A DNA stretch of 64,000 nucleotides from a virus (taxonomy: Duplodnaviria > Caudoviricetes): IMG/VR virus record IMGVR_UViG_3300033463_000015; one strand, written 5' to 3'. This document shows positions 1 to 35,123 of this stretch, piece after piece; the stretch's first letter is position 1; the number at the start of each line of letters is the position of its first letter. Below the pieces are notes generated by a model. It was not told the DNA's origin and did no database searches. It worked only from the letters and a program-made list of their open reading frames with translations. Position numbers and translations under genes: made by a program.

Positions 1-206
1 TGTACGAGTCCGCTCGCGAGCTGGTGCTCGGGCAGCTGGAGCTGGCCACCGAGGGCGCGACCCTCGCGGAGCTGGTGGAGAGCTGCGGCGATGCTCTGCC
101 CGCTGGGATGACCAAGGGCAAGGTGCAGTACGCTCTGCTCCACTACTGGAACGACGCAGTGAGCGTCGAGCAGACCAAGGGTGGTAATGTCTATCGCCTG
201 CGGTGA
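1..206 (+). CDS. Winged-HTH-like early protein, paralog 1 (5' truncated by window edge)
   Basis: Frame open from nt 3 (YESARELV...). Shares TLAEL..TKGKVQYAL..W...V.....G.N.Y with ORFs at 2482, 5829 and 9548. Followed by a GC hairpin and T-run at 216-244. Confidence 0.7.
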   Translation, partial: YESARELVLGQLELATEGATLAELVESCGDALPAGMTKGKVQYALLHYWNDAVSVEQTKGGNVYRLR

Positions 207-573
207 CGCGCTGGGAGCTGCCCCTCACGGGGCAGCTTTTTATTTGCGCGGATCCAATCGTTATATAGTTATAACTAACTTTCGTGCCGGCGGCCGCGAT
301 CGTTATGAATACATAACTACCTGGATCCGGCGCATAATTATGCAGAAAAATTTATAAATATTCATAGGAAAAAATACTTGACAAATTTCAAATTTTGAGT
401 ATAATAATAAGTGTCAGGTAGGGAAGTTCACGATGAGCCCTCGGGTTCAACGCCAATCGTGGTAAAAGGTGAATGCGATAAAAGCCAACTTCCCTCTTGA
501 CAAGCTCTTCACTCTATGGTATAATCAAGACATAAGAGAACGACACTCTTAAAAACGAGAAAGGGGTACACCT

Positions 574-963
574 ATGGCTATGACTAAGACCGCTCTTGAA
601 ACCGCTCTCCGCACCGCTTTCCTGTCCAAGCTGACCGAAGCCCTTGCTGATGAGGAAGTCCTGCGCGTGGGCTCCAACGAGATTGCTATCCCCTGTGTCG
701 ATGCTGAGGGCAACGATGCGTGGGTGGTGGTGAAGGTCTCCACGCCGCGTGGAACGCGCAATGGCGAGGGTGGCTACGATGCCTACGATGGCTACGCGGC
801 CGCGGATGACTACGCTATCGACTGCGCCGAGAAGGCCGAGAAGCGCAAGGTCGCGGACGAGAAGAAGGCCGCGAAGATCGCGGCTGACGCCAAGCGGCGC
901 GCCGAGAAGGCCGCGAAGAAGGCCGAAGCCGAAGCCGCGAAGGCCGAAAAGGATGGGGAGTAA
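574..963 (+). CDS. Hypothetical early protein with Lys/Ala/Glu-rich C-terminal helix
   Basis: RBS AAAGGGG, own promoter at 497-525. Similar architecture to 7355..7708 (DAEGNDAWVVV vs DANGEQRYVRI, KA-rich tail). Confidence 0.8.
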   Translation: MAMTKTALETALRTAFLSKLTEALADEEVLRVGSNEIAIPCVDAEGNDAWVVVKVSTPRGTRNGEGGYDAYDGYAAADDYAIDCAEKAEKRKVADEKKAAKIAADAKRRAEKAAKKAEAEAAKAEKDGE

Positions 964-1108
964 TCTCCCCATTTTTTGATGGCTAGGAGTTAGTCATAAC
1001 TAACTCCGCCGGCCGCAAAGTTAGGCTTGACAAACTCCAGCAATCGTGGTAAAATCATAATTGAAAAGAGGAAGGACACCTCCCAAACCAGAAAGGACAT
1101 TTCATTTT

Positions 1109-1762
1109 ATGGGTAACAAAATGGTCATCGACACGGAAACCGCCAACACTCCCAAAATTGAGGGGAAGTTGTTCTCCAACGATGGGCAAGTCTATGATGC
1201 TTGTTTCCGCGTCATCAATGACGAAGGCGAGACCCTTGAAGTTGTGCCCGTTATCAATCGCGATGTTTTCATTTCAATGCCCGAGGCGATGAGCGAGGCA
1301 TATTTCGCCGCGAAAATCCCGCAATACTGGCGCGACATTTGGAACAAAAAGTACACGGTCACGGACAGTTGGGGAATGTTTCAAATCTTCCGCACCCTCT
1401 GCCGCAAGTGGAATGTTGAGGCAATTATTGCCCATAACGCACCCTTCGACATTCGCGTTTTGAATGCGACTATGCGGTATCAGACCAAGAGTAAAAAACG
1501 GTACTTTCTCCCGTATGGTATGCCCGTGATTGATACCATGCGGATGGCGCAGGCTACCATTTGTAAGTCCCCCGATTATGTGGAGTTTTGTAAGCAAAAT
1601 GGCCTGATGACCAACCACTCCACCCCGAGACCGCGCGCGACCGCGGAAGCAATTTGGCAGTTTCTTACCAGTAATTTGGATTTCACCGAGGAGCATACTG
1701 GCGTGGGTGATACAGAGATCGAAGCCCAAATCTATGCCGCGTGTCTCCGTTGGAATGGGTAA
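1109..1762 (+). CDS. DEDDh (DnaQ-like) 3'-5' exonuclease, paralog 1
   Basis: ExoI VIDTET, ExoII AHNAPFD, ExoIII EHTGVGD. RBS GAAAGGA. Confidence 0.8.
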   Translation: MGNKMVIDTETANTPKIEGKLFSNDGQVYDACFRVINDEGETLEVVPVINRDVFISMPEAMSEAYFAAKIPQYWRDIWNKKYTVTDSWGMFQIFRTLCRKWNVEAIIAHNAPFDIRVLNATMRYQTKSKKRYFLPYGMPVIDTMRMAQATICKSPDYVEFCKQNGLMTNHSTPRPRATAEAIWQFLTSNLDFTEEHTGVGDTEIEAQIYAACLRWNG

Positions 1763-1872
1763 TTTCATACCCATTCCTTTTGTGCCGGCGCAAAATTTTC
1801 TACAATTTCCCTCTTGACAACCAACCCCTTTTATGGTAGAATCAAAGTGTACCAAGAAAGGAGATGACCCCG

Positions 1873-2019
1873 ATGAAGGTAATCTATCAATACACTTTCG
1901 GCGATGGATTGGTAATGGAATTCGCAGAAGAAATGCCCTTTACCCTTTTGAAACTCGCGGTTGACTATCACAAGGGACTCATCAAGTGCAAGAAGATTGT
2001 GATTATGGAGGTTGAGTAA
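1873..2019 (+). CDS. Small hypothetical protein (48 aa)
   Basis: RBS AAAGGAG, promoter at about 1814-1842. MKVIYQYTFG...EVE*. Confidence 0.6.
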   Translation: MKVIYQYTFGDGLVMEFAEEMPFTLLKLAVDYHKGLIKCKKIVIMEVE

Positions 2020-2020
2020 A

Positions 2021-2179
2021 ATGAACAAGCACAACAAGGTCAAGTCCAATGTGGAAATCATCCGCTCTATCCGCGGCGATTGGGGCGCGATTTCCCCCGT
2101 GACCAAGGTCATCGGTGACAAGCGGCGGAAGAAGAAGGACGCGGAAGCGCGGCGCCAGATTCGCGCGTACAAGGGCTAA
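2021..2179 (+). CDS. Small basic hypothetical protein (52 aa)
   Basis: RBS GGAGG. MNKHNKVKSN...RAYKG*. Confidence 0.6.
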   Translation: MNKHNKVKSNVEIIRSIRGDWGAISPVTKVIGDKRRKKKDAEARRQIRAYKG

Positions 2180-2481
2180 GTTAGGGCAACCTAACTTTGC
2201 CGGCGCGGTTAGCCCTGGCTAACCGCCGCAGATTGACAAAAACTTGTCAATCTTTTTTTTGCCAACCTATTGACAGGAGTCTAATTTTGAGTATAATAGA
2301 ATATGTCAGGAGGAGATAGGGAGCCCACCCCGAGGGGAGCGACCCTCCACCCCGAAAAAAAGTTTCCCAAACCCCTTGACAAACACCGCAAGGTGTGGTA
2401 CAATCAAGATGTCCTCAAGAGGAGGGCACACAAAAGAGTGCGGAACGACACCGCGTTAACAAACGAGAAAGGAAGGTCTAT

Positions 2482-2811
2482 ATGACTAAGGCTACTCTGT
2501 CTGCTCTGGTTTCCATCGTGGTTGACTCTGACGTGGAGGACAAGGACGCGATTCTCACGGAACTGAACAAGGAACTCCATCGCGGTGACGCCGTGAAGGC
2601 CGAGAAGGCGCAGACGTATGACAGCGCGTGGGAGTCCGTGCGCGAGATTCTCGCCACCGCGTCCAATGGTGCGACCGTGGCCGAGATTTTCGACAGTCTC
2701 GGTGAGGGCGTGCTGACCAAGGGTCAGCTCACCTACGCCCTCGGCCACCAGTGGGCTGACCTCGTGGTCAAGACCACTGGCAAGGTGAACACCTACGCCC
2801 TCAAGGCGTAA
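2482..2811 (+). CDS. Winged-HTH-like early protein, paralog 2
   Basis: ATVAEIF..LTKGQLTYALGHQWADLVVKTTGKVNTY. RBS GAAAGGAAGG. Tandem promoters upstream. Confidence 0.8.
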   Translation: MTKATLSALVSIVVDSDVEDKDAILTELNKELHRGDAVKAEKAQTYDSAWESVREILATASNGATVAEIFDSLGEGVLTKGQLTYALGHQWADLVVKTTGKVNTYALKA

Positions 2812-3011
2812 GGCTCACCCCTCCCGAATGCCACCCCTATGGGGTGGCATTTCATTTTGATTTCATAATAGTTAGTTAGTCATAACTAACTCGGCCGGCA
2901 TTTTATTTCGTGCCGGCGCAAAATTTCCCCTGGCAAAATTGCAAAAACCTCTTGACATCCAAACCCCTTTGCGGTATAATCAAGATGTACCAAATGAAAG
3001 GGGTTATCAAG

Positions 3012-3539
3012 ATGAAGAACGATTACGAAGTCCGCGCCGCTAAGTTCGCCCCCATCCTCGTCCGCCTGTTCGCCGCGTGCGCGACCCTCGCTGATTTCGA
3101 GGACGCCATCTGCGAGTACAATTCTACCCACAGCATCCAGCTTCACTATGCTCACGGCGTGTCCCGCATCGCCATCCTGCGCGCGGATTATGTCATCAAG
3201 TTTGACCTTGTGCCCGAAGAGAGTTGGACGAACGATGATGGCACTTGCCGCGCGGGTGATAACTCCACCGAGGCCGAAGTCTATGCCCGCGCCGAGCGTG
3301 AGGGCTATGCCTATCTGCTTGCCAAGACTACTGTGCTCCATATCGGTGGACGTTGCGTGTCCATTATGCCGCGCGTCGATGGCGTCGATGATTGGCATCG
3401 GTATTGGGGTGACTATGTGACCGATGAGGAATACGACTGGCTCGACTGGAACATCCACGACATCCACGAGGGCAATGTTGGCTACCGCAAGGGCAAGCCC
3501 GTAGTCATCGACTACGGATGGGATGGGAATATGTATTAA
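3012..3539 (+). CDS. Minimal protein-kinase-like fold protein, paralog 1
   Basis: G-V-S-R loop, VIKFD (Lys), helix-C Glu (EAEVY), catalytic DIHEGNVG and VVIDYG motifs. Confidence 0.7.
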   Translation: MKNDYEVRAAKFAPILVRLFAACATLADFEDAICEYNSTHSIQLHYAHGVSRIAILRADYVIKFDLVPEESWTNDDGTCRAGDNSTEAEVYARAEREGYAYLLAKTTVLHIGGRCVSIMPRVDGVDDWHRYWGDYVTDEEYDWLDWNIHDIHEGNVGYRKGKPVVIDYGWDGNMY

Positions 3540-3658
3540 TATTCCCATTTCGTTTTGCCGGCGCGAAAATTTCCCTGGCGAAACGCGAAAAAACCTCTTG
3601 ACAAAACCCCTCCCCTATGATAAAATTAAGTTGTACCAAGCGAAAGGAGCAAGGCAAA

Positions 3659-4375
3659 ATGAAGGAACTGTATCTCGTATTCGATGGCGAAGTTGCGAAT
3701 TGCCCCAAGGATGAGAAGGGTCAGCTTGACCTCACGAGCGGTCAGGTGTATGACAGCGGTTGGGCTATCGTAGATAATGAAGGTCGCGTGTATTGCGAAC
3801 GTTCGTTCGTCAATAGTGATGTCTTCTACGGTATGCCGCAGGCTATGGGCGAAGCGTTCTTCGCGGACAAGATTCCGCAATACAAGCAGGACATCCGCGA
3901 GGGCAAGCGCATTGTCCGCAACACGTGGGGCATTTGGCGTCAGCTTCGGCAGGATTGCGAGGACTACAAGGTCAAGGCCATCATCGCCCACAATGCGCGG
4001 TTTGATGTGCGGACGATGAACACCACGATGCGCTATCAGACCAAGAGCAAGCGGCGTTACTTCTTCCCCTATGGTATGCCTGTGTGGGACACGATGAAGA
4101 TGGCCGCGGACACTATCTGCAAGCGTGCCGACTATGTGGCCTTCTGTGAGGAACACGACTATATGACCAAGCACAAGGTGCCGCAGGTGCGCAAGACTGC
4201 CGAGATTCTGTGGCGTTTCCTCACTGGTGACGATGACTTCGCCGAGTCGCATACTGGCCTTGAGGATGTCAAGATTGAAGCACAGATTTTCGCGGCGTGC
4301 GTGCGGATGCACAAGGCGATGGAACGTGATGCGGAACTTGAACCCGATGACATCGAACAGCGGTGGGCTCTTTGA
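3659..4375 (+). CDS. DEDDh exonuclease, paralog 2
   Basis: VFDGEV, AHNARFD, SHTGLED. Shares TMRYQTKSK.RYF.PYGMPV.DTM with 1109..1762. Confidence 0.8.
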   Translation: MKELYLVFDGEVANCPKDEKGQLDLTSGQVYDSGWAIVDNEGRVYCERSFVNSDVFYGMPQAMGEAFFADKIPQYKQDIREGKRIVRNTWGIWRQLRQDCEDYKVKAIIAHNARFDVRTMNTTMRYQTKSKRRYFFPYGMPVWDTMKMAADTICKRADYVAFCEEHDYMTKHKVPQVRKTAEILWRFLTGDDDFAESHTGLEDVKIEAQIFAACVRMHKAMERDAELEPDDIEQRWAL

Positions 4376-4467
4376 GCCCGCCGTTTTCGCGCCGGCATAA
4401 AAAATTAGGCTTGACTAACTCAACACTATGCGGTATAATAAGGGTGTAAAGAAGAGGAGGAATTCCA

Positions 4468-4641
4468 ATGTTCAAGATTGAGTATGAGTACAATGGCCGC
4501 ACTATGACTTTCGATTTCATTTTCCATAGCTTTTGGGCCGCAAGCCTTAAGGCGCGTGACATCTCTAACGCCTTCCACACCAACGCCTATGTGTACAACC
4601 TTCACACGGGCGTCTATGTGGCGCATTACTGGGGCGATTGA
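4468..4641 (+). CDS. Small hypothetical protein (57 aa)
   Basis: RBS GAGGAGG, own promoter at about 4411-4439. Confidence 0.6.
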   Translation: MFKIEYEYNGRTMTFDFIFHSFWAASLKARDISNAFHTNAYVYNLHTGVYVAHYWGD

Positions 4642-4723
4642 CCCAGTTTTGCCGGCGCAAAAGTTAGGCTTGACTAACTCCTGGGTTTCGTGATACAATA
4701 AGGGTGAAAGGAAGGTGCTAAGA

Positions 4724-4861
4724 ATGAAGGTTTATCTCCGTAATTGCAAAGGACAGCAGACAATCCGTGAACTGAAACTGAGTCAAATTGTACGCATTTG
4801 GTTGTATCAAATGGTTCACGTGCGGAAAGAAGAGCGTTGCATTATGAAAATTCTTTTCTAA
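4724..4861 (+). CDS. Small hypothetical protein (45 aa)
   Basis: RBS AAGGAAGGTG, own promoter at about 4670-4699. Confidence 0.5.
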   Translation: MKVYLRNCKGQQTIRELKLSQIVRIWLYQMVHVRKEERCIMKILF

Positions 4862-4924
4862 AAACTCTTGACAAAACTCAAATCATCGTGTATAATAAAA
4901 ATACTCCAAGAGGGAGTAGAAAGG

Positions 4925-5362
4925 ATGACAACGATGACGATTTGGTTCGATATGGATGGCACGATTGCTGACCTCTATGGCGTGGATGGATGGCTTGACA
5001 ACCTCATCAACGAGAACACCCGCCCCTATGATGAAGCGAAGCCGCTTGTGAACATGGCACACCTTGCGCGGCTTCTCCACAAGGCGCAGGCGAATGGTTA
5101 TGAAATCGGTATCATCTCGTGGACTTCCCGCGGTGGCTCTGACCTCTACAATGGCGAGGTTGCCCTTGCTAAAATGGTATGGCTTCATAAGCATCTGCCC
5201 TCTGTGGAATGGGATGCCATCAAGATTGTGGCCTATGGCACGAACAAGCGCACCGCGTGTGGTGGTGGCATCCTGTTCGATGACGAAGAGCCGAACCGCA
5301 AGGCGTGGGGCGAAGGTGCTTTCACCCCTGACGAAATCATCCGCGTGCTGAAGGGTATCTAA
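4925..5362 (+). CDS. HAD-superfamily phosphatase (5'-nucleotidase-like)
   Basis: Motif I FDMDGTIAD, motif II IISW, conserved Lys, motif IV LFDDE. Confidence 0.75.
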   Translation: MTTMTIWFDMDGTIADLYGVDGWLDNLINENTRPYDEAKPLVNMAHLARLLHKAQANGYEIGIISWTSRGGSDLYNGEVALAKMVWLHKHLPSVEWDAIKIVAYGTNKRTACGGGILFDDEEPNRKAWGEGAFTPDEIIRVLKGI

Positions 5363-5828
5363 TTACCCTTTTTTCGTGCCGGCGCGGCAGTTAGTTATGA
5401 CTATATAACGAATCAGCCCTGGCGATTGTCAAAAATTTGTCAAAGAAAATTTGAAAAAATGCTTGACAGAAATCAAAATTGGAGTATAATTAATATTGTC
5501 AGGAGGGGACAGGGACACCACCCACGGAGGGCAAACCTCCGAGGCCGAAAAAAGTTCCGCGACCTCTTGACAGAGCGTCACACCCTGTGCTATAATAGGA
5601 CTGTAAGAAGGAGATGATACCCTTGGAGTAGAGAAAGGCCGCTAGCCGCGGATGGTGCGGAATTGCCAAAGCGCTTCCCTACCGCGTAGGCCGCAAAGAA
5701 GAGCGCAAAATTTCCTCCGAAAAACCCTTGACAAACACCACAGGATGTGGTACAATAAAGATGTTCCAAGAGGGAACACGAAAACGATCGGGAAGGAAAA
5801 CCCAACCAAACCAGAAAGGATGTGCCCT

Positions 5829-6161
5829 ATGAAGGTTTCCACTCTGTCCGCTGTGTACAATGCCCTGACCAACTACGGCTATGCCGATGAGACCGTGATG
5901 GCTGACCTGTACGCCGAGATTCACAAGGGCGACAAGGTCAAGGCCGAAAAGGCCGCGCTGTATGAGGATGCCAAGCCCATCGTCTTCGGCGTCTTCGCCC
6001 TGACTGACAAGCCCCTGACCGTGGCTGAGATTTGGGAGAACATCGAGGGCAATGTCCCCGAGGGCTTCACCAAGTCCAAGCTGTCTTACGCCCTGACCCA
6101 CAACTGGGCCGATGAGGTCGTGAAGGTCACGGGCAAGACCAACGCCTACACCAAGGCGTGA
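5829..6161 (+). CDS. Winged-HTH-like early protein, paralog 3
   Basis: LTVAEIW..EGFTKSKLSYALTHNWADEVVKVTGKTNAY. Confidence 0.8.
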   Translation: MKVSTLSAVYNALTNYGYADETVMADLYAEIHKGDKVKAEKAALYEDAKPIVFGVFALTDKPLTVAEIWENIEGNVPEGFTKSKLSYALTHNWADEVVKVTGKTNAYTKA

Positions 6162-6196
6162 CCCTCTATGGGAGGGCGCAAGCCCTCCCACCTCTT

Positions 6197-6271
6197 ACCC
6201 CATTGGCTCAATGGTAGAGCAACTGACTCTTAATCAGTGGGTTGCGGGTTCGAGTCCCGTGTGGGGTACCA
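6197..6271 (+). tRNA. tRNA-Lys (anticodon CTT)
   Basis: Acceptor ACCCCAT/GTGGGGT plus ACCA, D-arm GCTC-AATGGTA-GAGC, anticodon arm ACTGA-CTCTTAA-TCAGT, T-loop TTCGAGT. Confidence 0.93.
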
Positions 6272-6517
6272 GTGCCGCCTTAGGTGCGGCTTTTTATTTA
6301 TCGCAAAATTAGTTATATAGTTATAACTAACTCGCGGCCGGCACAAAATTAGGCTTGACTAACCAGGAGTTATGTGTTATAATAAGGGTGTCAAGAGGGA
6401 GAGAACCCCACCGCAAAAGGATGAGCGGGTGGCCCCGATTGGGTGGCGGACTCCAAAAAAGTCTTGACAAAAATCAAAAATTGATGTATAATGTAGAGGA
6501 AGAAAGGGGAAGAGACT

Positions 6518-6763
6518 ATGACTAATGTGTATGTGCTCACCAACGAAACCGATGGCAATTCTGTGATTGGCGTCTACTCCACGATGAAGAAGGCCATCAA
6601 TGCCCTCTTCAACGCCGCGGAGACCCTTGAGGTCGTTAGCTCTTGTATGGAGTCTGTGGGCGTGCGCTTCGTGTTCCTCGCGGGGACTGTCCCTGTGCGC
6701 TACTACATCGAAGAGGTCGAACTCGATGAGACCCTCTTCCTGCAGAAGAGCGACCTCTATTGA
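6518..6763 (+). CDS. Hypothetical protein
   Basis: ORF with RBS and promoter at 6464-6492. Confidence 0.7.
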   Translation: MTNVYVLTNETDGNSVIGVYSTMKKAINALFNAAETLEVVSSCMESVGVRFVFLAGTVPVRYYIEEVELDETLFLQKSDLY

Positions 6764-6772
6764 TAAGGAGCG

Positions 6773-7213
6773 ATGAAGATGACCAAACTTCAAGCAGTCC
6801 GCAAGTTTGCTAATGCTGTGGCACAGCAGAAGGTTGTCATTGCGCGCAATCACATCACCAAAAATTGGGCAATGTCACAGGATGAATTGCGTATGCTCAC
6901 GCCCACGAATTTCAACTATGAACCCGATGAAGGTGATGAAGCCTTCCGCATCGACTTTACCCATCGGTATGCCCCCGCTAATGAATTGATGGACATCACC
7001 ATCACTATTCTCCACGAAATCGGTCACTATTTTACCCGCTTTGACTATGATGCGGATGAAGATTACCACTTACGGCGTGCGGCCGCGAATATGAGTGAAT
7101 ATCTCCGCATTCCGTGTGAGCGTCTCGCTACTGATTGGGCGATTGCGTGGCTTCATGACCTTGAGCATTGGGCCATTGCTAAGCAATTTGAAGCGGACTT
7201 TATGGGTAAGTAA
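6773..7213 (+). CDS. HEXXH zinc-metallopeptidase-like protein
   Basis: TILHEIGH followed by E-x-x-A (CERLA). Confidence 0.6.
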   Translation: MKMTKLQAVRKFANAVAQQKVVIARNHITKNWAMSQDELRMLTPTNFNYEPDEGDEAFRIDFTHRYAPANELMDITITILHEIGHYFTRFDYDADEDYHLRRAAANMSEYLRIPCERLATDWAIAWLHDLEHWAIAKQFEADFMGK

Positions 7214-7354
7214 TTGCCCATATTTTCTGCCGGCGCGCTTGTGAAAAACTTAACAAAGAAAAATGCACAAAGCCCTTGACAATCACAAACCGATGGTGTA
7301 TAATCTAACTGTAATCAAGGGAAGGACACCCTACAAACCGAAAGGAGAATCTCT

Positions 7355-7708
7355 ATGGCGAAGATGAGCAAGCCTCAGGTGGATGCAGAACTGCGGGCGC
7401 GTGTGTTCAATGACCTCATCGAAGGTGCGGATACTGCTCTCCAGTATTGGCACATCAACGACCGCCAGTATGGCGCTCTGCTGAAGGACGCGAATGGCGA
7501 ACAGCGGTATGTCCGTATCGGTGTCATCGTGGCGGAACAGCGCGAGGATATGACTGCCGAGGAACTGATGGAGTCCGAGGTCAATGCGTATCGCGCCAAG
7601 CAGGAGGCCAAGGCCGAAAAGGCCAAGGCCAAAGAGGAAAAGATTGCCCGCGACAAAGCGCGGCGCGAGGCCAAGGAAAAGGAGGCGCAGGAAAATGTCG
7701 AAGGATGA
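7355..7708 (+). CDS. Hypothetical early protein with charged coiled-coil tail (likely paralog of 574..963)
   Basis: RBS AAAGGAG. KAEKAKAKEEKIARDKARREAK tail. Confidence 0.75.
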   Translation: MAKMSKPQVDAELRARVFNDLIEGADTALQYWHINDRQYGALLKDANGEQRYVRIGVIVAEQREDMTAEELMESEVNAYRAKQEAKAEKAKAKEEKIARDKARREAKEKEAQENVEG

Positions 7709-7883
7709 GATGGTTTGCCCCAAGTGCGGGAGCGAGGACTATGAGATTGGGGACTACGGCGAGAACTTCAACGATGAAGACTACTACTCCCGTTGGTGGC
7801 TCTGTCGTTGCGGAAAGTGCGGCTACTGCTATGAGGTGGAAAAGATTTACAATCTTGTCCGCACTCTGGTGAATGGGAACTAA
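7695..7883 (+). CDS. Zn-ribbon protein
   Basis: CPKCG...CGKCG, RBS GGAGG. Confidence 0.65.
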   Translation: MSKDEMVCPKCGSEDYEIGDYGENFNDEDYYSRWWLCRCGKCGYCYEVEKIYNLVRTLVNGN

Positions 7884-7994
7884 TGTTCCCATTCGCCGCC
7901 GGCAAATTAGGCTTGACTAACTCGTCAAGATGGTATATAATAAGGGTGAAAATAAGGAAAGGAAAATCCTAAACACCAGAAAGGATGATGAAGT

Positions 7995-8234
7995 ATGAAC
8001 CCGAATCGCCCTATCATTTGCAACATTCACAACTATGAGGATATGAGCGTTGAGGAAATCAATGCTCTGATTGACGGACTGTGTGGTCTGCGGCAGAATA
8101 AGCTTTCTGAAACAGCAGATAAGCACGCAGAGAGATTGAGCAATCTCATTTGCGACATTATGGACGATGGCTTTGTAGTCTATTGTAATGGAAACCAAAT
8201 TGAGCCTTGTGACCTTGATGTGCGTATTGATTAA
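7995..8234 (+). CDS. Hypothetical protein
   Basis: Own promoter and RBS GAAAGGA. Confidence 0.65.
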   Translation: MNPNRPIICNIHNYEDMSVEEINALIDGLCGLRQNKLSETADKHAERLSNLICDIMDDGFVVYCNGNQIEPCDLDVRID

Positions 8235-8344
8235 GGGGTAATAAATTACCCCTTATTTTCGCCGGCAAGAAAATTAGGCTTGACTAACTATCTGTCTTAT
8301 GATATAATCAAACTGTAAAAAGAAATAATCAAGGAGGAATCACG

Positions 8345-8620
8345 ATGGACGAATTTGAGATAAGTATGCGCATTGCTGAACTGGAAGACGAACTTGACCA
8401 GTTGCGTCTTGAAAATGACTCTTTGCGCCAGCGGCTTTGCGACAAGAAGTATCGGTATCAAATGATTACGGTATATGGCCAAGCCAGCAAGGTCGAAAGG
8501 AGCAACGACATTTCTATCTTGCTTCAAGCCGCATCCATCTATCTGTACGACCGCGACTGTACTATGCTTTCTATCTATGATTTCAAGGAAGGCCGCGACA
8601 TCTTTAACTACAGCCGTTAA
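8345..8620 (+). CDS. Hypothetical protein with N-terminal coiled coil
   Basis: RBS AGGAGG. IAELEDELDQLRLENDSLRQRL. Confidence 0.7.
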   Translation: MDEFEISMRIAELEDELDQLRLENDSLRQRLCDKKYRYQMITVYGQASKVERSNDISILLQAASIYLYDRDCTMLSIYDFKEGRDIFNYSR

Positions 8621-8695
8621 GGTGCCGGCCAAAAATTAGGCTTGACTAACTACCCTCTGTGTGATACAATAGGGGTGTAGAAAGGAAGGATGACA

Positions 8696-8845
8696 ATGTT
8701 CCGCAAAGTGTGTGCCGCTCTCGGCGCTATCCTGTTGGCTATGGGTCTCCTGTGGGGCGCGTTCAATCACGCATGGCTGTGGGCAGTCCTTCCCGCATTC
8801 ATCCTGATGGCTATCGGTAGCATTAAAATTACCGATGACGAATAA
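8696..8845 (+). CDS. Small membrane protein (49 aa, two hydrophobic segments)
   Basis: MFRKVCAALGAILLAMGLLWG...WAVLPAFILMAIG. Own promoter. Confidence 0.6.
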   Translation: MFRKVCAALGAILLAMGLLWGAFNHAWLWAVLPAFILMAIGSIKITDDE

Positions 8846-8911
8846 AACCTCTTGACAAACCCCTCCCCATATGCTATAATAAGAGCGTACCAAACGAAAG
8901 GAGCGAACAAA

Positions 8912-9202
8912 ATGCGCGACATCAAGAACGGCACCTACAATGGCAATATGACCTTCTGCCCTGTGAACTGTTGGAACGAGGACGATTGCCCCTATGCCCA
9001 CGAGGGTATCTGCCACATCGATGACCCCGTGGAGGATTGCGATGACTTCGCCGCGTTCTTCCCCTCTTGGGAAGACTGGGAAGACGCGGACGATGTTGAC
9101 CCCGATGCTCCCACGGACTTCTCGCAGGAAGAAATGTGGTGGGCCACGCAGACCTTCGGTTTCAATACTGAAGAAGCAAGAGAGGATGATGACGATGCTT
9201 GA
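8912..9202 (+). CDS. Very acidic Cys-containing hypothetical protein
   Basis: RBS AAAGGAG. FCPVNC..DCPY...CHIDDP..DCDDF, rich in Asp/Glu/Trp. Confidence 0.7.
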   Translation: MRDIKNGTYNGNMTFCPVNCWNEDDCPYAHEGICHIDDPVEDCDDFAAFFPSWEDWEDADDVDPDAPTDFSQEEMWWATQTFGFNTEEAREDDDDA

Positions 9203-9547
9203 TACCTTTGTTGTACTGTGCCAGATTCTCTTTATCATTGCTATCATCGTTCATAATATGAACGGAAATAGGGGTAAGTAATTACCCTTATTTTTCGCCG
9301 GCGCGATTGTTAAAAACTTAACAATCCTAATTTTGAAAAAACACTTGACATATCCCAAATTTGCGGTATAATAGAATTGTTCCAAGGGACACCACCCACA
9401 CCCCAGTTGCCAAGTCGCGGTTCAAACTCAAAAAAAGTTTGCGAAACCCCTTGACAAGCACCCCAAAGTGTGGTACAATGAGAATGTCCCAAGGGACAAG
9501 AAAAAGAAAAGACAAGGCCAGTCTCAAAAACCAGAAAGGGTAACCAC

Positions 9548-9883
9548 ATGAAGCGCAACACCATCCAGTCTCTCGTTTCCTTCCTCAATGGCGAGACCGT
9601 GACCAACCTCGACGAGATCAAGGCCGAACTCGAGGCCGAACTGAACAAGGGCGCGGTCGCCAAGGCCGAGAAGGACGCGGGCTATGAGGCCGCGTGGGAC
9701 ATCGTCCGCAGTGTCTTCGCCCTAACCACGGCTCCCCTGACCGTGGCGGAAATCTTCGAGCAGGTCGAGGAGACCCTGCCCGAGGGCTTCACCAAGGGCA
9801 AGGTGCAGTATGGCCTCACTCACCAGTGGGCTGACCGCGTGGTGAAGATTGAGGGCAAGCCCAACACCTACCGCCTCGCGTGA
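9548..9883 (+). CDS. Winged-HTH-like early protein, paralog 4
   Basis: LTVAEIF..EGFTKGKVQYGLTHQWADRVVKIEGKPNTYRL. Confidence 0.8.
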   Translation: MKRNTIQSLVSFLNGETVTNLDEIKAELEAELNKGAVAKAEKDAGYEAAWDIVRSVFALTTAPLTVAEIFEQVEETLPEGFTKGKVQYGLTHQWADRVVKIEGKPNTYRLA

Positions 9884-10029
9884 GGCGGGGAGGGCTTCGG
9901 CCCTCTTTTCTTTTGGGCGCAAGTTAGTCGTGACTAACTGGCCGGCACGAAATTTTTTTAAAAAGGTATTGACAAAAAGATTCCTTTGGCTTATAATAAA
10001 GGTGTTCCAAGAGAAAAGGAGGATGAAGT

Positions 10030-10251
10030 ATGTATAACCACAGGAGTATCTACGAACCTATCCGCGAACCCATTCGTTACGAATTCGATACGCGATACAA
10101 GGATGGCCGCGTTGAAGCCAAGGTTGGCAACGATGGGCCCTCCCTTGTCATCGAAGCGCTCACTGCTCTCAACAATCCCGAAGTGAATAGCGTGAGTGTG
10201 TGGGACTTCGTGGAACAGCGTTACCTCATCATCCAGACCAAAGAGCGGTAA
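10030..10251 (+). CDS. Hypothetical protein
   Basis: RBS AGGAGG, own promoter. Confidence 0.65.
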   Translation: MYNHRSIYEPIREPIRYEFDTRYKDGRVEAKVGNDGPSLVIEALTALNNPEVNSVSVWDFVEQRYLIIQTKER

Positions 10252-10349
10252 GAAATTTTCAAAAAGGTATTGACAAATAAAATAAAATGAGTATAATAGA
10301 AGATGAAGAAAGGACAAGGACAGTCCGTAAAACCAGAAAGGAATAACAT

Positions 10350-10778
10350 ATGACCACCATCGAGACCATTCGTGACATCACCGTGACCGCTAAAGTTGCC
10401 AATCGCATTGCACAGGAAACGAAAGCAGAACTCGCGCGGCTCAAGCTTGAAAAGGCCACCATCGAATTCTGCGAAAACTATGTTGAAGCCGAAATTTTGA
10501 ACGCGGCAACCGAAGGAATTGGTTGCGTTTATCTGCCCACGTTTGGTAGGATGCAGTATAGTGATGCTGATGAATGGTATCCTTTGAAGACTGATACTTA
10601 CCGCTATGCCAATGGTGATGAGTCTCTTGTTCCTGACCAGACTAAACCCGCGATTAGTATTGCGTATCTTACCAATTATCTTGAACATCGCGGTTTCACT
10701 GTCACGGTTGAGAAAAGGTATTATATGCAGTATAGTTGGGGTCAGCAGAAGGGACACCGCATCCGCATCTCTTGGTAA
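10350..10778 (+). CDS. Hypothetical protein
   Basis: RBS GAAAGGA, own promoter, terminator at 10777-10801. Confidence 0.7.
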   Translation: MTTIETIRDITVTAKVANRIAQETKAELARLKLEKATIEFCENYVEAEILNAATEGIGCVYLPTFGRMQYSDADEWYPLKTDTYRYANGDESLVPDQTKPAISIAYLTNYLEHRGFTVTVEKRYYMQYSWGQQKGHRIRISW

Positions 10779-10815
10779 GGGTAGGAAACTACCCTTTTTT
10801 TCGTGCCGGCAAGTT

Positions 10816-11262
10816 TTACATAGACTTGCACGACCATTCATACTGGCGACCATTGATAGACTGAAGCGTTTCAAACGCCATCGCCACATAGGTGAAGAAC
10901 TTATTGCGCGCACCCTTCAACGTGTTCACATTCATACAGCGGAAGTGGTCATTGCCGCGATGTTCCATATTGCAGTTAGCATCATACATAGACCGCACAT
11001 ATGCTTCAATGAACAGCCTATCAGCGTGCGTCCCTTCAAACTCAACATACAGATCAATAGGCGTATCCACAGTATACTTGCGGCCATCAAGATTCTTTGA
11101 CTCTCCAATCTTAATGGTGGCATCCATTTCAAAATAATTCTTGGCTTCCATTTCAGTATACTCATTCGCGCGGTCAAGATACCACTGCTTTGCCTGTTTG
11201 AAGTTCTGCCAACCATATCCATCGGTGTAGTAAGTTGCAAAGTAAATGTAGCTCAGTTCCAT
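10816..11262 (-). CDS. Hypothetical protein (inverted unit)
   Basis: RBS AAAGGAGG. Minus-strand promoter TTGACA-17-TACAAT at about 11302-11330. Flanked by GCCGGC on both sides. Confidence 0.75.
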   Translation of the reverse strand: MELSYIYFATYYTDGYGWQNFKQAKQWYLDRANEYTEMEAKNYFEMDATIKIGESKNLDGRKYTVDTPIDLYVEFEGTHADRLFIEAYVRSMYDANCNMEHRGNDHFRCMNVNTLKGARNKFFTYVAMAFETLQSINGRQYEWSCKSM

Positions 11263-11585
11263 TATGATGCCCTCCTTTATTTCGCGCCTTTCAGCATCTT
11301 TATTGTATCGCTTTTCCTAGCTTTTGTCAATAGGTTTTTGAAAAAAATTTTTATGCCGGCATAAAAAATCGTGCCGGCAAAATTCTGCCGGCGCCACAAG
11401 ATACTCTCCCACCTCTACCATATTATCACAAAGTTGTCAAGTTGTCAAGCCCCAAAGTGTTACAATTGTGTTAAGATTTTGTTACAAAATTATGACGCAG
11501 CCTTGTCAAGTGTTTGACCTGTGTCAAGTGCTTACCGGCTTCCAAATTCTGCCAACCGGATCCTTATATTATAATATAGCGCCAG

Positions 11586-11747
11586 GGAGCTGGGAAAGGC
11601 CATAGGAGCTGGGAGCTGGGCCCGTGGGAGCTGGGACTAAAGGAGCTGGGAACTGCCCCGGCGACCGGAGGGAGCTGGGGAGCTGGGAATGGATCCGGCA
11701 GCTGGAAAATTTTTCCAACGCGCCAGGGAGCTGGGTCAAGGAGCTGG
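11586..11747 (+). repeat. Cluster of nine GGAGCTGG direct repeats
   Basis: Copies at 11586, 11605, 11612, 11627, 11642, 11671, 11679, 11727 and 11740, all on one strand. Confidence 0.9.
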
Positions 11748-11751
11748 AAAT

Positions 11752-11785
11752 AAAAAAAGAAGGCCAGCATCAGCTGGCCTTCTTT
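11752..11785 (-). terminator. Intrinsic terminator of the helicase gene
   Basis: AAAGAAGGCCAGC-ATCA-GCTGGCCTTCTTT hairpin with a T-run on the minus strand. Confidence 0.75.
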
Positions 11786-13158
11786 AATCCTACGATCCGG
11801 TATTGCTTTATATGAGCACGCCCATACTTGCGTTCTTCAAATTCTATCTCGTCTCCCCATTCTTTTGTTACAGCCTACCACGTCAGGAGCTGCTTTGTAA
11901 ATGTCTTATCATAGACAACATAAGTCTATAGTAATTCTTTTATCTCATCCTTATTATGCCAAGTATAGTAGCAAGCTGAAAAGTGCCCATCTTCTCGCAC
12001 AAACTCTACCAGCATTTTTGCCGCAGATAAAATATACTTACGCTCGGGCGCATAACGCGCTCTAATAAATTGACCAATATCCATATAATTACGAGAGTTG
12101 CAAATCCAATCTTGGAACCGTGTATCATAAATATCTATGCCGCGGCCCGCGACCTAATTGGTTATAACGCAATCATATTCTGGCGGAACCATATGATGTT
12201 CATTAATATACTTTAATCCTTCACGCTGCTTATCAGTAACGCAGCCACGCCAATCAGGATTATTCTCGAACGACCATAGCGTTAAGACGTGAAAGCCCTT
12301 TGCCGCAAACTACTCTTGCAGCCGCATAATATCAGTAACACGTTCTGTATATATCCAGGGGCACATATTCTTATCAGGACATATCAAACCATCGTTAAGA
12401 GCTGCAGAAACACTTTCAATAAAGACAGTTTCTTTGGCGTCATAGATTTCATCAATCTTGCCGCGCATAATATAATTAATATAATCACCGAACAAAGAAG
12501 CTGCTATCTCTGGAGTAGCAGACATCGCGATTAAACGTATTCGTGCGGGCTCCAATATAATAGTATGAATACTATAGATAAAAGCTGCAATAGAAGTGTG
12601 GCGGCCTTCCTATAAAAGGTTAGCAAGCTTCTCTTCTTTTAGATCCGGGAACGTCTTCTTGACTTGCCGGATCTCAGCTTCATAGTATTGCTGCACATCA
12701 TCAAACTCATCCCATACAATTAAATCTATATCATCTAACCATTCGGTATCACGTCGTATAAGAGCTGCAAAAGTTTGATAGCACATTATGTGTATCTTGT
12801 CGCTATCATCCTCCACCGTCCATACGCGTTTCTATCTATGTGCCAGCCAGCCATCTAAGTCTGTATCAGCAAACACTGTAGTAATATCTGGATAGCGCAG
12901 ATGAATATTATCGCGCAGCACCATTGTGTGGACAAGATATACTATATGTTTTTTCGCACGCGAAAAGCTGAGGATGCGCGGATCAAAACTAAAAGTAGTC
13001 TTGCCACATCCCCTCGGTGCTTTCAGCACATTAAATTGTCCTGGCTAGATACGCTCTAAATCTTCTGCCTATATAATAGAAGATAAGAACTACTAGTGCT
13101 CTATCGGTTGATGCGCGCTTACCTACGTAAGCGGCATGGTAATAATTTCCTGTCCCAT
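11770..13158 (-). CDS. SF2 (DExD-box) helicase-like / origin-binding protein, 462 aa with TAG=Gln
   Basis: Three track fragments share one frame joined only by TAG. Motifs: I APRGCGKTT, II WDEFD, III MSAT, V TN(Q)VAGRGIDI, VI QFIRAR. 11 in-frame TAG, ends TGA. RBS GAAGGAG. Confidence 0.85.
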
Positions 13159-14186: not shown

Positions 14187-14933
14187 ATGGATCGCACTAT
14201 GCAGCATTTCATTTCCATTTTGGATCAAATGATTGAGAACAACCAGTTTTTCGCATTTTATTTTCAAAGCCCCTTCTCGCTTGAGGACATCGAAGATATG
14301 CATTGGGATTACAATATACCCCGCAACATTTCATTTTACAGTGGAGTGTCTCGTGGTGTAATTTCAGATTCAGAATGGGATGAAGTTATCAAGTTTGACC
14401 TTGATAGTTACTATGCGGAAGTAAGCCCCTGTGCGGCTGAAACTACTGTGTATCAGGCTGCTGTGAATGCGCGTTTGGATCGTTGTTTTACGCGGGCTCG
14501 CTTCATTGGTACTTATGTGAAGACTGTGAAGGCATACCCCGTATCTCTGTTTGAAGGTTGTGATGACGAGAACCTTGACCTTACCGAAGAAGATTTCATT
14601 GATAAGGTCAAGGAACTTGGTTTTGATGAAGGTGATATGCGCGAGGTCACTATTCGTCTGCCGCTGTATGCCTATGAGAAGGCAAATAATGTTGGTTGGA
14701 CTTGTCCTGAGTATGAGGATGAGGAAGGCGAAATCGCGCATTCGTATGACAGTCCGCTTGTTGAGCGTGCGGAAGAAGTTGCCGCTAGCTTTGTGCATGA
14801 ATATGGTGAAGAACTGTATGCGGAACTGAGCTCTTTCCTGCGTGAATGGGATGTGAATGACTTGCATTGCGGCAATGTGGGTTGGATTGGCAAGCGATTC
14901 GTGCTGATTGACTATGCGGGTTACCACGAATGA
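14187..14933 (+). CDS. Protein-kinase-like fold protein, paralog 2
   Basis: SGVSRG, VIKFD, ETTVY, DLHCGNVG and VLIDYAG match 3012..3539, with an insertion. Confidence 0.7.
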   Translation: MDRTMQHFISILDQMIENNQFFAFYFQSPFSLEDIEDMHWDYNIPRNISFYSGVSRGVISDSEWDEVIKFDLDSYYAEVSPCAAETTVYQAAVNARLDRCFTRARFIGTYVKTVKAYPVSLFEGCDDENLDLTEEDFIDKVKELGFDEGDMREVTIRLPLYAYEKANNVGWTCPEYEDEEGEIAHSYDSPLVERAEEVAASFVHEYGEELYAELSSFLREWDVNDLHCGNVGWIGKRFVLIDYAGYHE

Positions 14934-24027: not shown

Positions 24028-24262
24028 AGAACTTCTTCTTAAGGTGCTGAAAGAGCAGATTGAAGACGCTGAATTTTTCAATAGCAATTATTGTAAAATG
24101 ACTCCTGTCTGGGTCTTTAAGGATACACTTGAACTCCTTCAGCCCGCTAAGCCTCCCAAGGCATCTCATCAGTGGGATAAATGCAACTACTGTGGCCGTT
24201 ATGTTTTTTACACTTGGAAGTGGTGTCCGTATTGTGGAAGGGGTATTAATTGGAATGAATGA
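24002..24262 (+). CDS. Zn-ribbon protein
   Basis: CNYCG...WCPYCGRGINW. Confidence 0.6.
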   Translation: MVKIVQGTKELLLKVLKEQIEDAEFFNSNYCKMTPVWVFKDTLELLQPAKPPKASHQWDKCNYCGRYVFYTWKWCPYCGRGINWNE

Positions 24263-24674
24263 CTCTCACCTGTTTAAGGCCGCACGCAAGGCAAGTAAGA
24301 ACGCCGATTACACCGGAGCTAATGGCGTTCAAATTGGGTGTGTGGCCGTCTATAAAGGAACCATTCTTGCTAAGGGATGCAATAGCGACAGAACTCATCC
24401 CACGCAGGAGCGATATAACCGTTTCAGGTATAAGAATGTGGGCAATAGATACTTGCCCGCTAAATGCCATAGCGAGATAAGAACCATTGAAAAACTGAAG
24501 TATCTTGACATTGATTTTTCTAAAGTCCATATCTATGTGTATCGTGAGTTTAAAAATGGAGAACTTGGCCCTTCTAAACCTTGTCCTTCTTGTGTTGCCT
24601 ATCTTAAAAGTATGGGCATCCAGCATATTCATTACACTGATGTTGATGGATACTATCATTTGAAGCTTGTGTAA
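24255..24674 (+). CDS. Zn-dependent cytidine/dCMP-deaminase-like protein
   Basis: IGCVAVYKG..LAKGCN, H-x-E (HSE) and PCxxC (KPCPSC). Confidence 0.75.
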   Translation: MNDSHLFKAARKASKNADYTGANGVQIGCVAVYKGTILAKGCNSDRTHPTQERYNRFRYKNVGNRYLPAKCHSEIRTIEKLKYLDIDFSKVHIYVYREFKNGELGPSKPCPSCVAYLKSMGIQHIHYTDVDGYYHLKLV

Positions 24675-33500: not shown

Positions 33501-35123
33501 ACTAGTAATAATTATGATGTAGCAGAAAAGTTACTAGTTCTAAAAAATATGCAAGCCGCGCGTTCAACATTGTCACTTCAAGATTTATTCCCTGTAGTAA
33601 TGGGTTATAATGGTTCAGTTGAAGGCTATTCTTTAGTAAGTAATCCAATACGTTATACTGGTACTTCAACAACTATTAATGATTATACACCATTCGCGGC
33701 CAATAAGAGTTTTACAATCGCTATTGACTATAAATTTAATTAGGAATAGAATTCTACTGCAGATGAAGCAGTACTATTATCTTGTTATGATTCTACTGGT
33801 GATAGTAAACAAGGCTTTAAACTATTTTATAATCCTCGTAGTGCTTCTCCAGTCCCATAGATTAGTTTTGGTGATACTGCGGCGGCCTATAGTTCTACTA
33901 ATATACGTACAATTGGCAACTCTATTACAAATCGTGGTATGATAGTATTACGGCATTAGGCAAATGATAAAACTTTATACATTTATATTGGTTCAGATAA
34001 CACTGGATTAGCAACAGAATATTCTAGTAGTGCTTTTAGAAAAACCATTACTAATTAGAATTTTGTTCCTAATACAAATGCTCATATTGTACTTGGAGGC
34101 ATTAATGCTGGAGGAGATACATCTATAACTAATGCTCGAGGTACGCTTTACTCGGTAAAGTACTGGGAAGAAGACTTAGGAGAAGGAGAATGCATGCAAT
34201 TAGCGAGTTGGTGCCACGAGACAATACATTTTGCGGTTTCAGATTATAACGGAGCCACTGCTCATAGTGCTATTAACTCTACTTTAAACGCTTCAGTTGT
34301 ATTACATGCATTAAATGAATCACAAATGGGAACTATTACCGAGCCTAAAATCTCAAGAGCTGACGCACCGAACAATCCCACTATTGGTTGGCAGCCGTCA
34401 ACGGTACGTGATTTTTATAACAATCGTATATATAACGGTTTGCCTGTATTATTATAGAGTATTATTAATTCTGTATCTATCCCTTATAAAATTGCTTCTT
34501 ATAATCAGGAATCTGGATACATTATCAATTAGAGTGGTGTAAATATATCTAAAGATTATGTATTTGCTCCTTCCTGTGTTGAATTAGGAGAAAATCGTGG
34601 TAATCATTCTGTTGAGGCGTCGGGTCCATTCAGTTGGAATAACGCATCTTAGATGACAACTTTAATTTATAATGAAGGCAGCTTTGAAAATGGGAATGGT
34701 AATGTTAATTATAGTCGTTTAAGATTCCCATATAAAAATATTCTACTTAATCCATCTGCAACAGTATATACGAAATTTCCAACTACTCTTGGTAGCTTCT
34801 ATACTTGGGCATCAGAAAATTCAATCACCCTTAAAGAAGGGGATATTTTAATTCCTGAAAATAGTTTAGTTGCTTATATTTATGTATCAACTGCATCAGT
34901 TAATGCTGGAGCACCAATCATTACTGATACATCTTCAAAAGCATATTTAGCTACTAATAATGGCGGTTGGATTGAATCTAAAGGTTGGTGGACTCGTTCT
35001 GTACTTGATACTAATAGTGCGGGGCAGATTAATAAGTTTATTTATATTGATACATTAGGTGCCTTAATTACTTCAAGTAATACTGAAAATGTTCATGGTA
35101 TTAATTGTTCTATTGCAATTTAA
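27516..35123 (+). CDS. Giant virion/tail-associated protein with CotH-kinase-like, LamG-like and LRR-like regions, 2535 aa with TAG=Gln
   Basis: Twelve track fragments lie in one frame, and the gaps I read contain only TAG (about 32), no TAA or TGA. RBS AGGAGGT. Motifs NFDWINGG, VQGTSS..Y, KANVASSENANN, DNVSKNTF, YDWDT.LAYDNDG. Confidence 0.85.

Follow-up and report, generated by a model that had tools for sequence, protein, structure and literature searches.

The window analysed here is the whole 64,000-nucleotide stretch of IMG/VR record IMGVR_UViG_3300033463_000015, a virus of the Caudoviricetes; the assembly carrying it measures 174 kb (ENA). The window is part of a large gut or rumen phage with a genome of about 175-180 kb, in which TAG is read as an amino acid. 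The rightward arm of its early region occupies positions 1-11392 and comprises about 18 very small transcription units. At the unit boundaries the order is an intrinsic terminator, a non-transcribed spacer with the palindrome GCCGGC, and the next promoter. Both GCCGGC and its CCGG core are restricted to these spacers, having been purged from the transcribed DNA of the early region; the hexamer looks like a lineage-specific, protein-binding boundary mark and not a dedicated recombination site.

Reading TAG as sense yielded open reading frames (ORFs) of about 2535-2537, 1057, 966, 930 and 835 amino acids (aa), among others, whereas the standard code leaves few long ORFs beyond about 27 kb. Among the middle and late genes of 12000-64000, the frame at 27516-35123 (about 2535-2537 aa) contains 32 in-frame TAG codons, and an SF2 helicase-like gene at 11770-13158 (-) contains 11. 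The frames opened in this way gave generic matches to tail-fibre, virion-protein and endolysin PHROGs. Early genes (1-11.4 kb) end in TAA or TGA only, with no use of TAG, and GC content drops in a sharp step from about 50% in 1-11.4 kb to 32-45% in the remaining window. The window is collinear at 72-82% nucleotide identity with the relative G001 (IMG/VR contig 3300031992_000015; 179,585 bp, overlapping ends, CheckV 100% complete), whose early-array locus is L001. Relatives carry a leftward early arm upstream of the rightward arm. A search of the INPHARED phages with 1-12000 matched only 60 bp of tRNA, and the phage therefore has no cultured relative.

The array and its junctions are listed below by window position. 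"Palindrome" denotes the 18-bp AGTTAG-N6-CTAACT type, "Rex-like" a second palindrome described later, and the letters in brackets the C-terminal residues encoded by the hairpin.

1-11392 (+): rightward early-gene array, about 18 GCCGGC-delimited units, GC about 50%, stops TAA/TGA; runs off the left window edge
213-405 (+): junction 1; terminator 213-240, degenerate AGTTAG-type palindrome 263-280, GCCGGC 286-291, promoter 378-405
948-1055 (+): junction 2; stop-enclosing hairpin 948-977 (..KDGE), palindrome 988-1005, GCCGGC 1008-1013, palindrome 1019-1036 embedding the -35, promoter 1027-1055
1752-1842 (+): junction 3; stop-enclosing hairpin 1752-1777 (..WNG), GCCGGC 1784-1789, promoter 1814-1842
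2179-2297 (+): junction 4; palindrome 2179-2196, GCCGGC 2199-2204, hairpin 2205-2226, Rex-like palindrome 2230-2253, promoter 2270-2297
2826-2980 (+): junction 5; terminator 2826-2852, palindrome 2874-2891, two GCCGGC (2894, 2912), promoter 2952-2980
3516-3626 (+): junction 6; stop-enclosing hairpin 3516-3555 (..DGNMY), GCCGGC 3557-3562, promoter 3598-3626
4359-4439 (+): junction 7; stop-enclosing hairpin 4359-4385, GCCGGC 4391-4396, -35-embedding palindrome 4403-4420, promoter 4411-4439
4628-4699 (+): junction 8; weak stop-enclosing hairpin 4628-4647, GCCGGC 4651-4656, -35-embedding palindrome 4662-4679, promoter 4670-4699
5350-5490 (+): junction 9; stop-enclosing hairpin 5350-5371 (..KGI), GCCGGC 5378-5383, degenerate palindrome 5389-5406, promoter 5463-5490
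6169-6383 (+): junction 10; terminator 6169-6190, tRNA-Lys(CTT) 6197-6271, hairpin of the tRNA 6274-6290, degenerate palindromes 6311-6332, GCCGGC 6337-6342, promoter 6355-6383
7201-7304 (+): junction 11; stop-enclosing hairpin 7201-7222 (..MGK), GCCGGC 7229-7234, Rex-like palindrome ~7237-7258, promoter 7276-7304
7867-7941 (+): junction 12; stop-enclosing hairpin 7867-7898 (..NGN), GCCGGC 7898-7903, palindrome 7905-7922, promoter 7913-7941
8232-8308 (+): junction 13; hairpin 8232-8255 starting at the stop, GCCGGC 8261-8266, palindrome 8272-8289, promoter 8280-8308
8618-8670 (+): junction 14; stop 8618-8620 without a clear terminator, GCCGGC 8624-8629, palindrome 8634-8651, promoter 8642-8670
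9264-9372 (+): junction 15; stop-enclosing hairpin 9264-9295 (..RGK), GCCGGC 9297-9302, Rex-like palindrome ~9305-9326, promoter 9345-9372
9887-9997 (+): junction 16; terminator 9887-9908, palindrome 9922-9939, GCCGGC 9941-9946, promoter 9969-9997
10777-10815 (+): junction 17; terminator 10777-10796, GCCGGC 10805-10810, directly against the 3' end of convergent gene 10816-11262 (-)
11302-11392: right end of the array; convergent-gene promoter 11330-11302 (-), then three GCCGGC (11355, 11373, 11387)

The terminators are closely fitted to the genes that precede them. Their 5' stem often consists of the last codons of the gene and the loop carries the stop, such that 11-12 unit-final genes have a stop inside or touching the hairpin; folding gave -10 to -22 kcal/mol with z-scores of -3 to -8. 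All seven stop-in-hairpin terminators listed in the original prediction, an earlier reading of this DNA made from its letters, exist and enclose the stop codon, with z-scores of -4 to -8. Downstream, the unit promoters are near-consensus host sigma-70/sigma-A promoters: 24 on the plus strand of the early array match TTGACA-N16-18-TATAAT at 11-12 of 12 positions. Tandem consensus promoters with structured leaders of 80-100 nt between them precede each of the winged-helix paralogs described below (378-573, 2270-2481, 5463-5828 and 9345-9547). An Rfam search of 1-12000 found only tRNA, with no known family in the structured leaders.

The 18-bp palindrome AGTTAG-N6-CTAACT (at most two mismatches) has 19 copies in the window, where 3.3 would be expected, and 17 of them lie in 263-9939; in G001 all 16 AGTTA-N8-TAACT palindromes lie inside the early region at 12.6-31.1 kb. 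Its copies either separate the terminator from GCCGGC or cover the -35 of promoters in the TTAGGCTTGACTAACT class. Hexamer and palindrome, where they occur together, are 1-9 bp apart, with the hexamer on either side, in this group as well as in a distant clade with CCCGGG. When no 18-bp palindrome intervenes, GCCGGC follows the hairpin and T-tract by 0-9 nt; at four window junctions it lies 31-46 nt past the terminator, behind the palindrome. ORFs seem to extend into whichever junction element follows. At L001:13320-13354 in G001, a zincin-like gene runs into an AGTTAG-type palindrome, which supplies its stop (tail ..SHN).

We counted 24 GCCGGC in the 64 kb against 7.6 ± 2.8 expected, a number reached by none of 100 dinucleotide shuffles. 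The 21 copies reported in the original prediction were recovered at 286-11392, all in non-coding spacers and none inside a called gene. For statistics we pooled five GCCGGC-type arrays (the window, L001, L027+L003+L038, L046 and L051). Their 21.6 kb of non-coding DNA holds 91 copies against 4.2 ± 2.1 expected, a 21-fold enrichment in spacers, and their 38.0 kb of coding DNA only 2 against 17.6 ± 4.0 in codon shuffles, so the intergenic enrichment goes beyond base composition. Broken down by compartment, the 7.7 kb from terminators to the first -35 held 81 copies, the 7.4 kb separating tandem promoters 3, the 4.0 kb of 5' untranslated regions (5'UTRs) none, and places where no promoter was called 4; the predicted position, always between a terminator and the next promoter, is thus nearly without exception.

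The element is also strict. A profile of 107 sites carries 2 bits at each of the six core positions and no more than 0.5 bits in the flanks, which are weakly symmetric (T-rich 5', A-rich 3'). The hexamer is conserved at orthologous junctions between genomes only 70-80% identical. G001 has 30 of its 47 copies inside the early region; the 17 outside compare with a Markov expectation of 14.4, and the late region shows no avoidance. A literature search on GCCGGC in phage intergenic DNA found nothing relevant.

The core tetranucleotide follows the same pattern. CCGG occurs 19 times in early coding DNA against 147 expected (z about -12.5 to -13), the most depleted 4-mer by z-score, and is depleted only mildly in the late region (ratio about 0.56). 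Of the 22 CCGG in window 1-11400, 21 belong to junction hexamers, as do all 14 at the related locus L064; in the CCCGGG clade the fractions inside CCCGGG are 7/9, 9/11, 9/10 and 4/4. Palindromic 4-mers in general are the most depleted words of early coding DNA, more weakly so in the late region: over 574-10778 the observed/expected ratios are 0.08 for CTAG, 0.13 for CCGG, 0.25 for CATG, 0.34 for GATC and 0.48 for ACGT. This early depletion recalls the site-free first-step-transfer DNA of phage T5.

Comparison with relatives revealed that the junction palindrome changes as a set between lineages. The distant clade (L012, L042, L021, L032, L006 and L017) has exonuclease-like proteins 28-32% identical to those of the window; an NT5C-like protein, about 41-46% identical, is present at two of its loci. 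Its junctions keep the order terminator, AGTTAG palindrome, hexamer, promoter, with CCCGGG as the hexamer; GCCGGC is absent save for one copy in L017. In the close group L047-L050, terminator hairpins again contain the stop, and 14 of 16 junctions continue with TTAGATGT-N4-ACATCTAA; each locus has only 1-2 GCCGGC and 0-1 AGTTAG-type palindromes. GC content of the early arrays with TTAGATGT junctions is only about 41%.

Relatedness was gauged from a 248-aa backbone protein (window 14187-14933); because it is missing from the relatives G002 and G003, pairwise identities were used and no rooted tree. The window protein is 75%, 68% and 67% identical to those of the L047-L050 group and 71% to that of G001, and only 48% to that of L046, which is of the GCCGGC type. 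On these identities L047-L050 are not an outgroup. The ..KDGE terminator hairpin of window 948-977 is recognisable in L047 too. Since L047-L050 are closer in the backbone protein than L046 and yet have a different palindrome, the palindrome was replaced wholesale, while flanking genes and some terminators were retained. Such turnover fits recognition sites evolving in concert with their reader, and L047-L050 show that the cassette architecture can do without GCCGGC.

The original prediction also proposed gene capture and shuffling, with GCCGGC as the point of recombination or cleavage. Its first half is borne out: among relatives, whole units have been gained, lost, replaced or reordered. The window is collinear with G001 except for insertions and deletions of units, and a further relative, contig B, is reshuffled unit by unit. 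Adjacency was broken in 72% of comparisons across motif junctions, versus 54% inside operons. Breakpoints were not specific to the hexamer. One deletion, of window unit 4391-4651 in G001, had its crossover somewhere within the roughly 30-bp repeat running from GCCGGC to TTGACTAACT at the promoter, and window unit 7898-8261 is missing in L001. The well-resolved breaks lie at ribosome-binding site (RBS) leaders, at terminator or palindrome edges and inside operons. Between L047 and L049 (94-96% identity) an ORF and its terminator were replaced; the exchange breaks at the AAACCAGAA leader on the left and, on the right, at the palindrome's left edge. G001 and L064 (92% identity) differ by a gene inserted between RBS and ATG, a whole unit inserted between two AAGGAGG leaders, and, between tandem promoters, an added tRNA-like block. 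In the window, gene 1864-2019 has been inserted into an operon; in G001, a stop codon and its terminator are separated by an additional gene of 46 aa.

Breaks are spread over leaders, terminator edges and promoters, and recombination therefore uses all of the repeated regulatory pieces. The L047-L050-type relatives have the same architecture and the same gene flux in arrays without GCCGGC junctions. The junction had been pictured as a portable element supplying stop, terminator and promoter; a repeated composite regulatory element is present, but these three parts do not move together, since in L047/L049 the ORF travels with its terminator. Judged from the sequence comparisons, the mobile piece appears to be RBS, ORF and terminator, with palindrome, promoter and leader staying resident. 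The unit at 10816-11262, originally taken for an inverted cassette, has the same inverted placement at the right end of the array in contig B and L046. It is an old convergent end gene and does not count as evidence of cassette inversion.

Searches for enzymes that could act on the junction covered G001, G002 and G003. Phage_integrase (PF00589), Resolvase and Y1_Tnp were not found in the three genomes, apart from one sub-threshold Y1_Tnp match in G003, and no recombinase family was found in the complete relative G001. C5 (PF00145) and N4/N6 (PF01555) methylases were not found in G001-G003, nor was an NgoMIV-type nuclease (PF09015), the search for which was run without a positive control.

Paralogs are scattered among the units as described previously: a family of about 110 aa is present five times and a DEDD-exonuclease-like family (phrog_20187/192) twice. 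Members of the first have a predicted winged-helix fold and lie at the following positions:

9548-9883 (+): winged-helix paralog, about 110 aa, predicted fold
3-206: partial winged-helix paralog
2482-2811: winged-helix paralog
5829-6161: winged-helix paralog
574-963: more distant winged-helix paralog

The predicted structure of a paralog (pLDDT 92) consists of three helices and a winged helix. In a structure search the nearest folds were Fur, PerR, MarR, ArsR and Z-alpha, with weak E-values of 0.03-0.15. The family has 217 metagenomic homologs and no Pfam family. On the modelled fold, these paralogs are the only evident DNA-binding candidates in the array; apart from them, no recognisable DNA-binding domain was found in the window proteins scanned with Pfam and PHROGs. 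The family was considered as reader of GCCGGC and no link could be made, as recognition-helix differences between motif types are confounded by phylogeny. Palindromes of the form TTGT(T/G/C)AA-N4-TT(A/G)ACAA (TTGTTAAAAACTTAACAA-type) occur at 2230-2253, ~5425-5446, ~7237-7258 and ~9305-9326. They lie upstream of the winged-helix paralog genes and gene 7355, ahead of the first tandem promoter, and match the clostridial Rex operator.

We read the locus as an early array of the host-takeover type with junctions resembling the promoter/stem-loop (PeSL) cassettes of T4-type phages, to which strict, lineage-specific palindromes have been added in non-transcribed spacers, where proteins would bind them; we put the probability of this reading at about 0.55. 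The spacer palindromes would be bound by one or more sequence-specific DNA-binding proteins, encoded by phage or host. Once bound, the proteins might form a roadblock or insulator behind the terminator at each unit boundary, or might work through an operator shared by the early promoters. Concerted evolution would keep the sites uniform within a lineage, and units would be gained, lost and shuffled by ordinary homologous or microhomology recombination among RBS leaders, terminator stems, palindromes and promoters. The narrower proposition, that the spacer palindrome is a protein recognition site acting at unit boundaries, has in our analysis roughly an even chance of being correct.

Several observations weigh against this interpretation. 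The distance from GCCGGC to the -35 ranges from 9 to 79 bp, which is atypical of a classical operator, and restriction-modification enzymes, more typically than transcription factors, recognise an invariant 6-bp core. No motif-binding protein was found: Pfam and PHROGs were blank for nearly all of 10 early and 20 middle proteins. An HTH_36 protein of L047-type phages was rejected as the reader, being 97.6% identical in G001, which is of the GCCGGC type, and so not tracking motif type. The Rex-like palindromes are more plausibly the target of the winged-helix paralogs or of host Rex than GCCGGC is. The CCGG purge may in part be generic restriction avoidance, as CTAG, CATG and GATC are also depleted.

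A dedicated site for crossover or cleavage, served by a recombinase or by a CCGG-family nuclease generating compatible CCGG overhangs, could account for the gain, loss and reordering of units, for the deletion with its crossover inside the GCCGGC-to-promoter repeat and for the purge of CCGG from the rest of the early region. GCCGGC and CCCGGG presumably share the CCGG core of one restriction-enzyme family. We nevertheless regard this account as unlikely: the best-resolved recent events break at RBS leaders, at terminator or palindrome edges and inside operons, lineages without GCCGGC show equal gene flux, G001 tolerates its 17 copies outside the early region, and this 100%-complete genome has no integrase, resolvase, Y1 transposase or NgoMIV-like gene. 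A narrower form, in which an unrecognised CCGG-specific nicking or cutting activity on GCCGGC and CCCGGG focuses breaks and recombination on the spacers, is in our view very improbable. If true, it would turn the early region into a natural exchanger that cuts and rejoins cassettes through ends compatible across lineages, and would explain why CCGG is purged from early transcripts with one kept per junction. Both hexamers are canonical type II sites (NgoMIV/NaeI for GCCGGC, SmaI/XmaI for CCCGGG), and they could be restriction-modification or epigenetic targets: decoys, methylation-dependent switches or the sole unmodified sites in modified DNA. The depletion of 4-bp palindromes in early coding DNA beyond that of the late region is in keeping with such a role, as is a dCMP-deaminase-like gene at 24129-24674 that hints at altered nucleotide metabolism. 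We consider the proposal improbable, as G001-G003 have no C5 or N4/N6 methylase and no NgoMIV-like gene, a host that cut CCGG sites would make the roughly 20 sites conserved in the first-expressed DNA a liability, and the tight pairing with AGTTAG-N6-CTAACT would be left unexplained.

Two further explanations dispense with a protein partner. GCCGGC could be a passive GC clamp that follows the U-tract, hinders forward translocation of RNA polymerase and so strengthens intrinsic termination. Its position immediately after the hairpin and T-tract where no palindrome intervenes suits this idea, as does its absence from 5'UTRs and near-absence from coding DNA in the five arrays. Any GC-rich hexamer would serve as a clamp, however, and the core is invariant and switches whole to CCCGGG. 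Moreover, it lies far beyond the terminator in the four junctions where it stands behind the palindrome, is present at the terminator-less junction (8624) and as a triplet at the array end, and is not needed for termination in close relatives, which makes a clamp a rather unlikely explanation. A functionless passenger hexamer, carried in a junction repeat homogenised by gene conversion, would agree with the concerted evolution of the repeats and their wholesale replacement between lineages. It is hard to reconcile with near-random flanks around a core invariant at 107 sites, with retention of the hexamer at orthologous junctions of diverged genomes and with the purge of CCGG from the rest of the early region, and we give it very little credence.

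Other features of the phage are as follows. Weak Pfam or PHROG matches among the 30 early and middle proteins comprised an exonuclease-like PHROG and a sub-cut-off NT5C, a zincin, a zinc ribbon and a dCMP deaminase, none of them a DNA-binding candidate. The deaminase-like gene at 24129-24674 and early gene 4925-5362, with its weak sub-cut-off Pfam NT5C match and a match to a 5'-3' deoxyribonucleotidase PHROG, may hint at altered nucleotide pools or modified DNA. The tRNA-Lys(CTT) at 6197-6271, inside an early junction, has a 90% identical copy in contig B and none in G001; G001 has a tRNA-like insert between tandem promoters at L001:15800-16100. Two sets of iteron-like repeats, TTGTCAAGT (4 copies) and GGGAGCTGGG (7 copies), lie at 11434-11533 and 11579-11748, between the array end and the helicase-like gene, and may be a replication origin. 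That gene (11770-13158, -) is only 27-28% identical to its counterparts L062/L061 in G001/G002, in flanks of 72-82% nucleotide identity. It is a non-orthologous replacement, and a helicase tree was dropped for this reason. The host is probably within Clostridia. Short contigs, probably of related phages (L079, L080, L084, L094, L096 and L104), were binned with two Acutalibacteraceae metagenome-assembled genomes, a weak host lead; they have AGTTA-N8-TAACT palindromes (up to 16 in 8 kb), consensus promoters and GCCGGC, with 11 of 12 CCGG inside GCCGGC in L094.

Early host-takeover regions hold the fastest-evolving anti-host weapons of large phages, and to our knowledge their modularity is understood only for the PeSLs of T4-type phages. 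New here are a strict GC hexamer almost exclusive to the non-transcribed DNA between units, a junction palindrome swapped wholesale between lineages with genes 70-80% identical, and terminator hairpins that routinely serve as the last codons and stop of a gene. If a protein does read the palindromes, they would constitute a boundary or insulator system of a phage transcription array and would offer a way to study how stop-codon-recoded phages control their early genes; no such phage of this group has been cultured. The junction itself, with terminator, spacer and strong promoter, is a compact, naturally insulated expression unit that could be tried out in Gram-positive hosts.

We agree with the original prediction that PeSLs are the nearest precedent (PMC2839356, PMC4122927). 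There, a stem-loop and a sigma-70 early promoter are repeated through a hyperplastic region of small ORFans, indels and replacements are bounded by the repeats, and homologous recombination between repeats is the proposed mechanism (PMC2839356, PMC4122927). The window likewise has a terminator hairpin (z -3 to -8) directly followed by one of 24 near-consensus sigma-70 promoters, at about 18 junctions in 11.4 kb of small genes, most of them without a Pfam or PHROG function. Some breaks in the present phages fall in the junction repeat (4391-4651 and one edge in L047/L049), others at the repeated RBS leaders or inside operons. The present junction differs in its strict, lineage-specific palindromes in the non-transcribed spacer and in the stop codon that is commonly inside the terminator, and the phage differs in being TAG-recoded, of another group and with a probable Clostridia host. 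No T4 core genes were seen among the generic PHROG matches, in which no search was aimed at T4 markers.

In layout the array resembles SPO1's host-takeover module, where about 12 kb of small early genes are grouped into short operons with the promoters and RBSs of very highly expressed genes (PMC6873191). Both are early small-gene regions of about 12 kb in large phages of Gram-positive hosts; an iterated GC palindrome is not reported for SPO1 (PMC6873191). No homology to SPO1 genes was seen, with no search aimed at it. Like integron/attC arrays, the window combines small unrelated genes, a repeated palindromic element and high cassette turnover. Integron cassettes are promoterless and under a common Pc, whereas each unit here has its own near-consensus promoter and terminator, the palindromes are short perfect inverted repeats without R''-L''...L'-R' structure, and there is no IntI-type integrase (PF00589 absent from G001). 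GTTAG..CTAAC was considered as an integron core site (GTTRRRY) and rejected on arm order, loop length, the promoters present and the absence of IntI; the Rok AACTA motif was dropped as a chance overlap.

The stoperators of Cluster A mycobacteriophages occur in tens of copies, mostly intergenic, with a consensus that tracks repressor specificity, and the bound protein blocks elongation (PMC6550527, PMC9283540). They are 13-bp, asymmetric sites oriented with transcription and spread genome-wide in temperate phages with a known repressor (PMC6550527, PMC9283540). The sites described here are palindromes restricted to the early array, where they follow terminators. No repressor was identified, and Phage_integrase and Resolvase are absent from G001-G003. 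With many copies of one short intergenic site and a lineage-specific consensus, stoperators are nonetheless the nearest functional analogue of the spacer palindromes.

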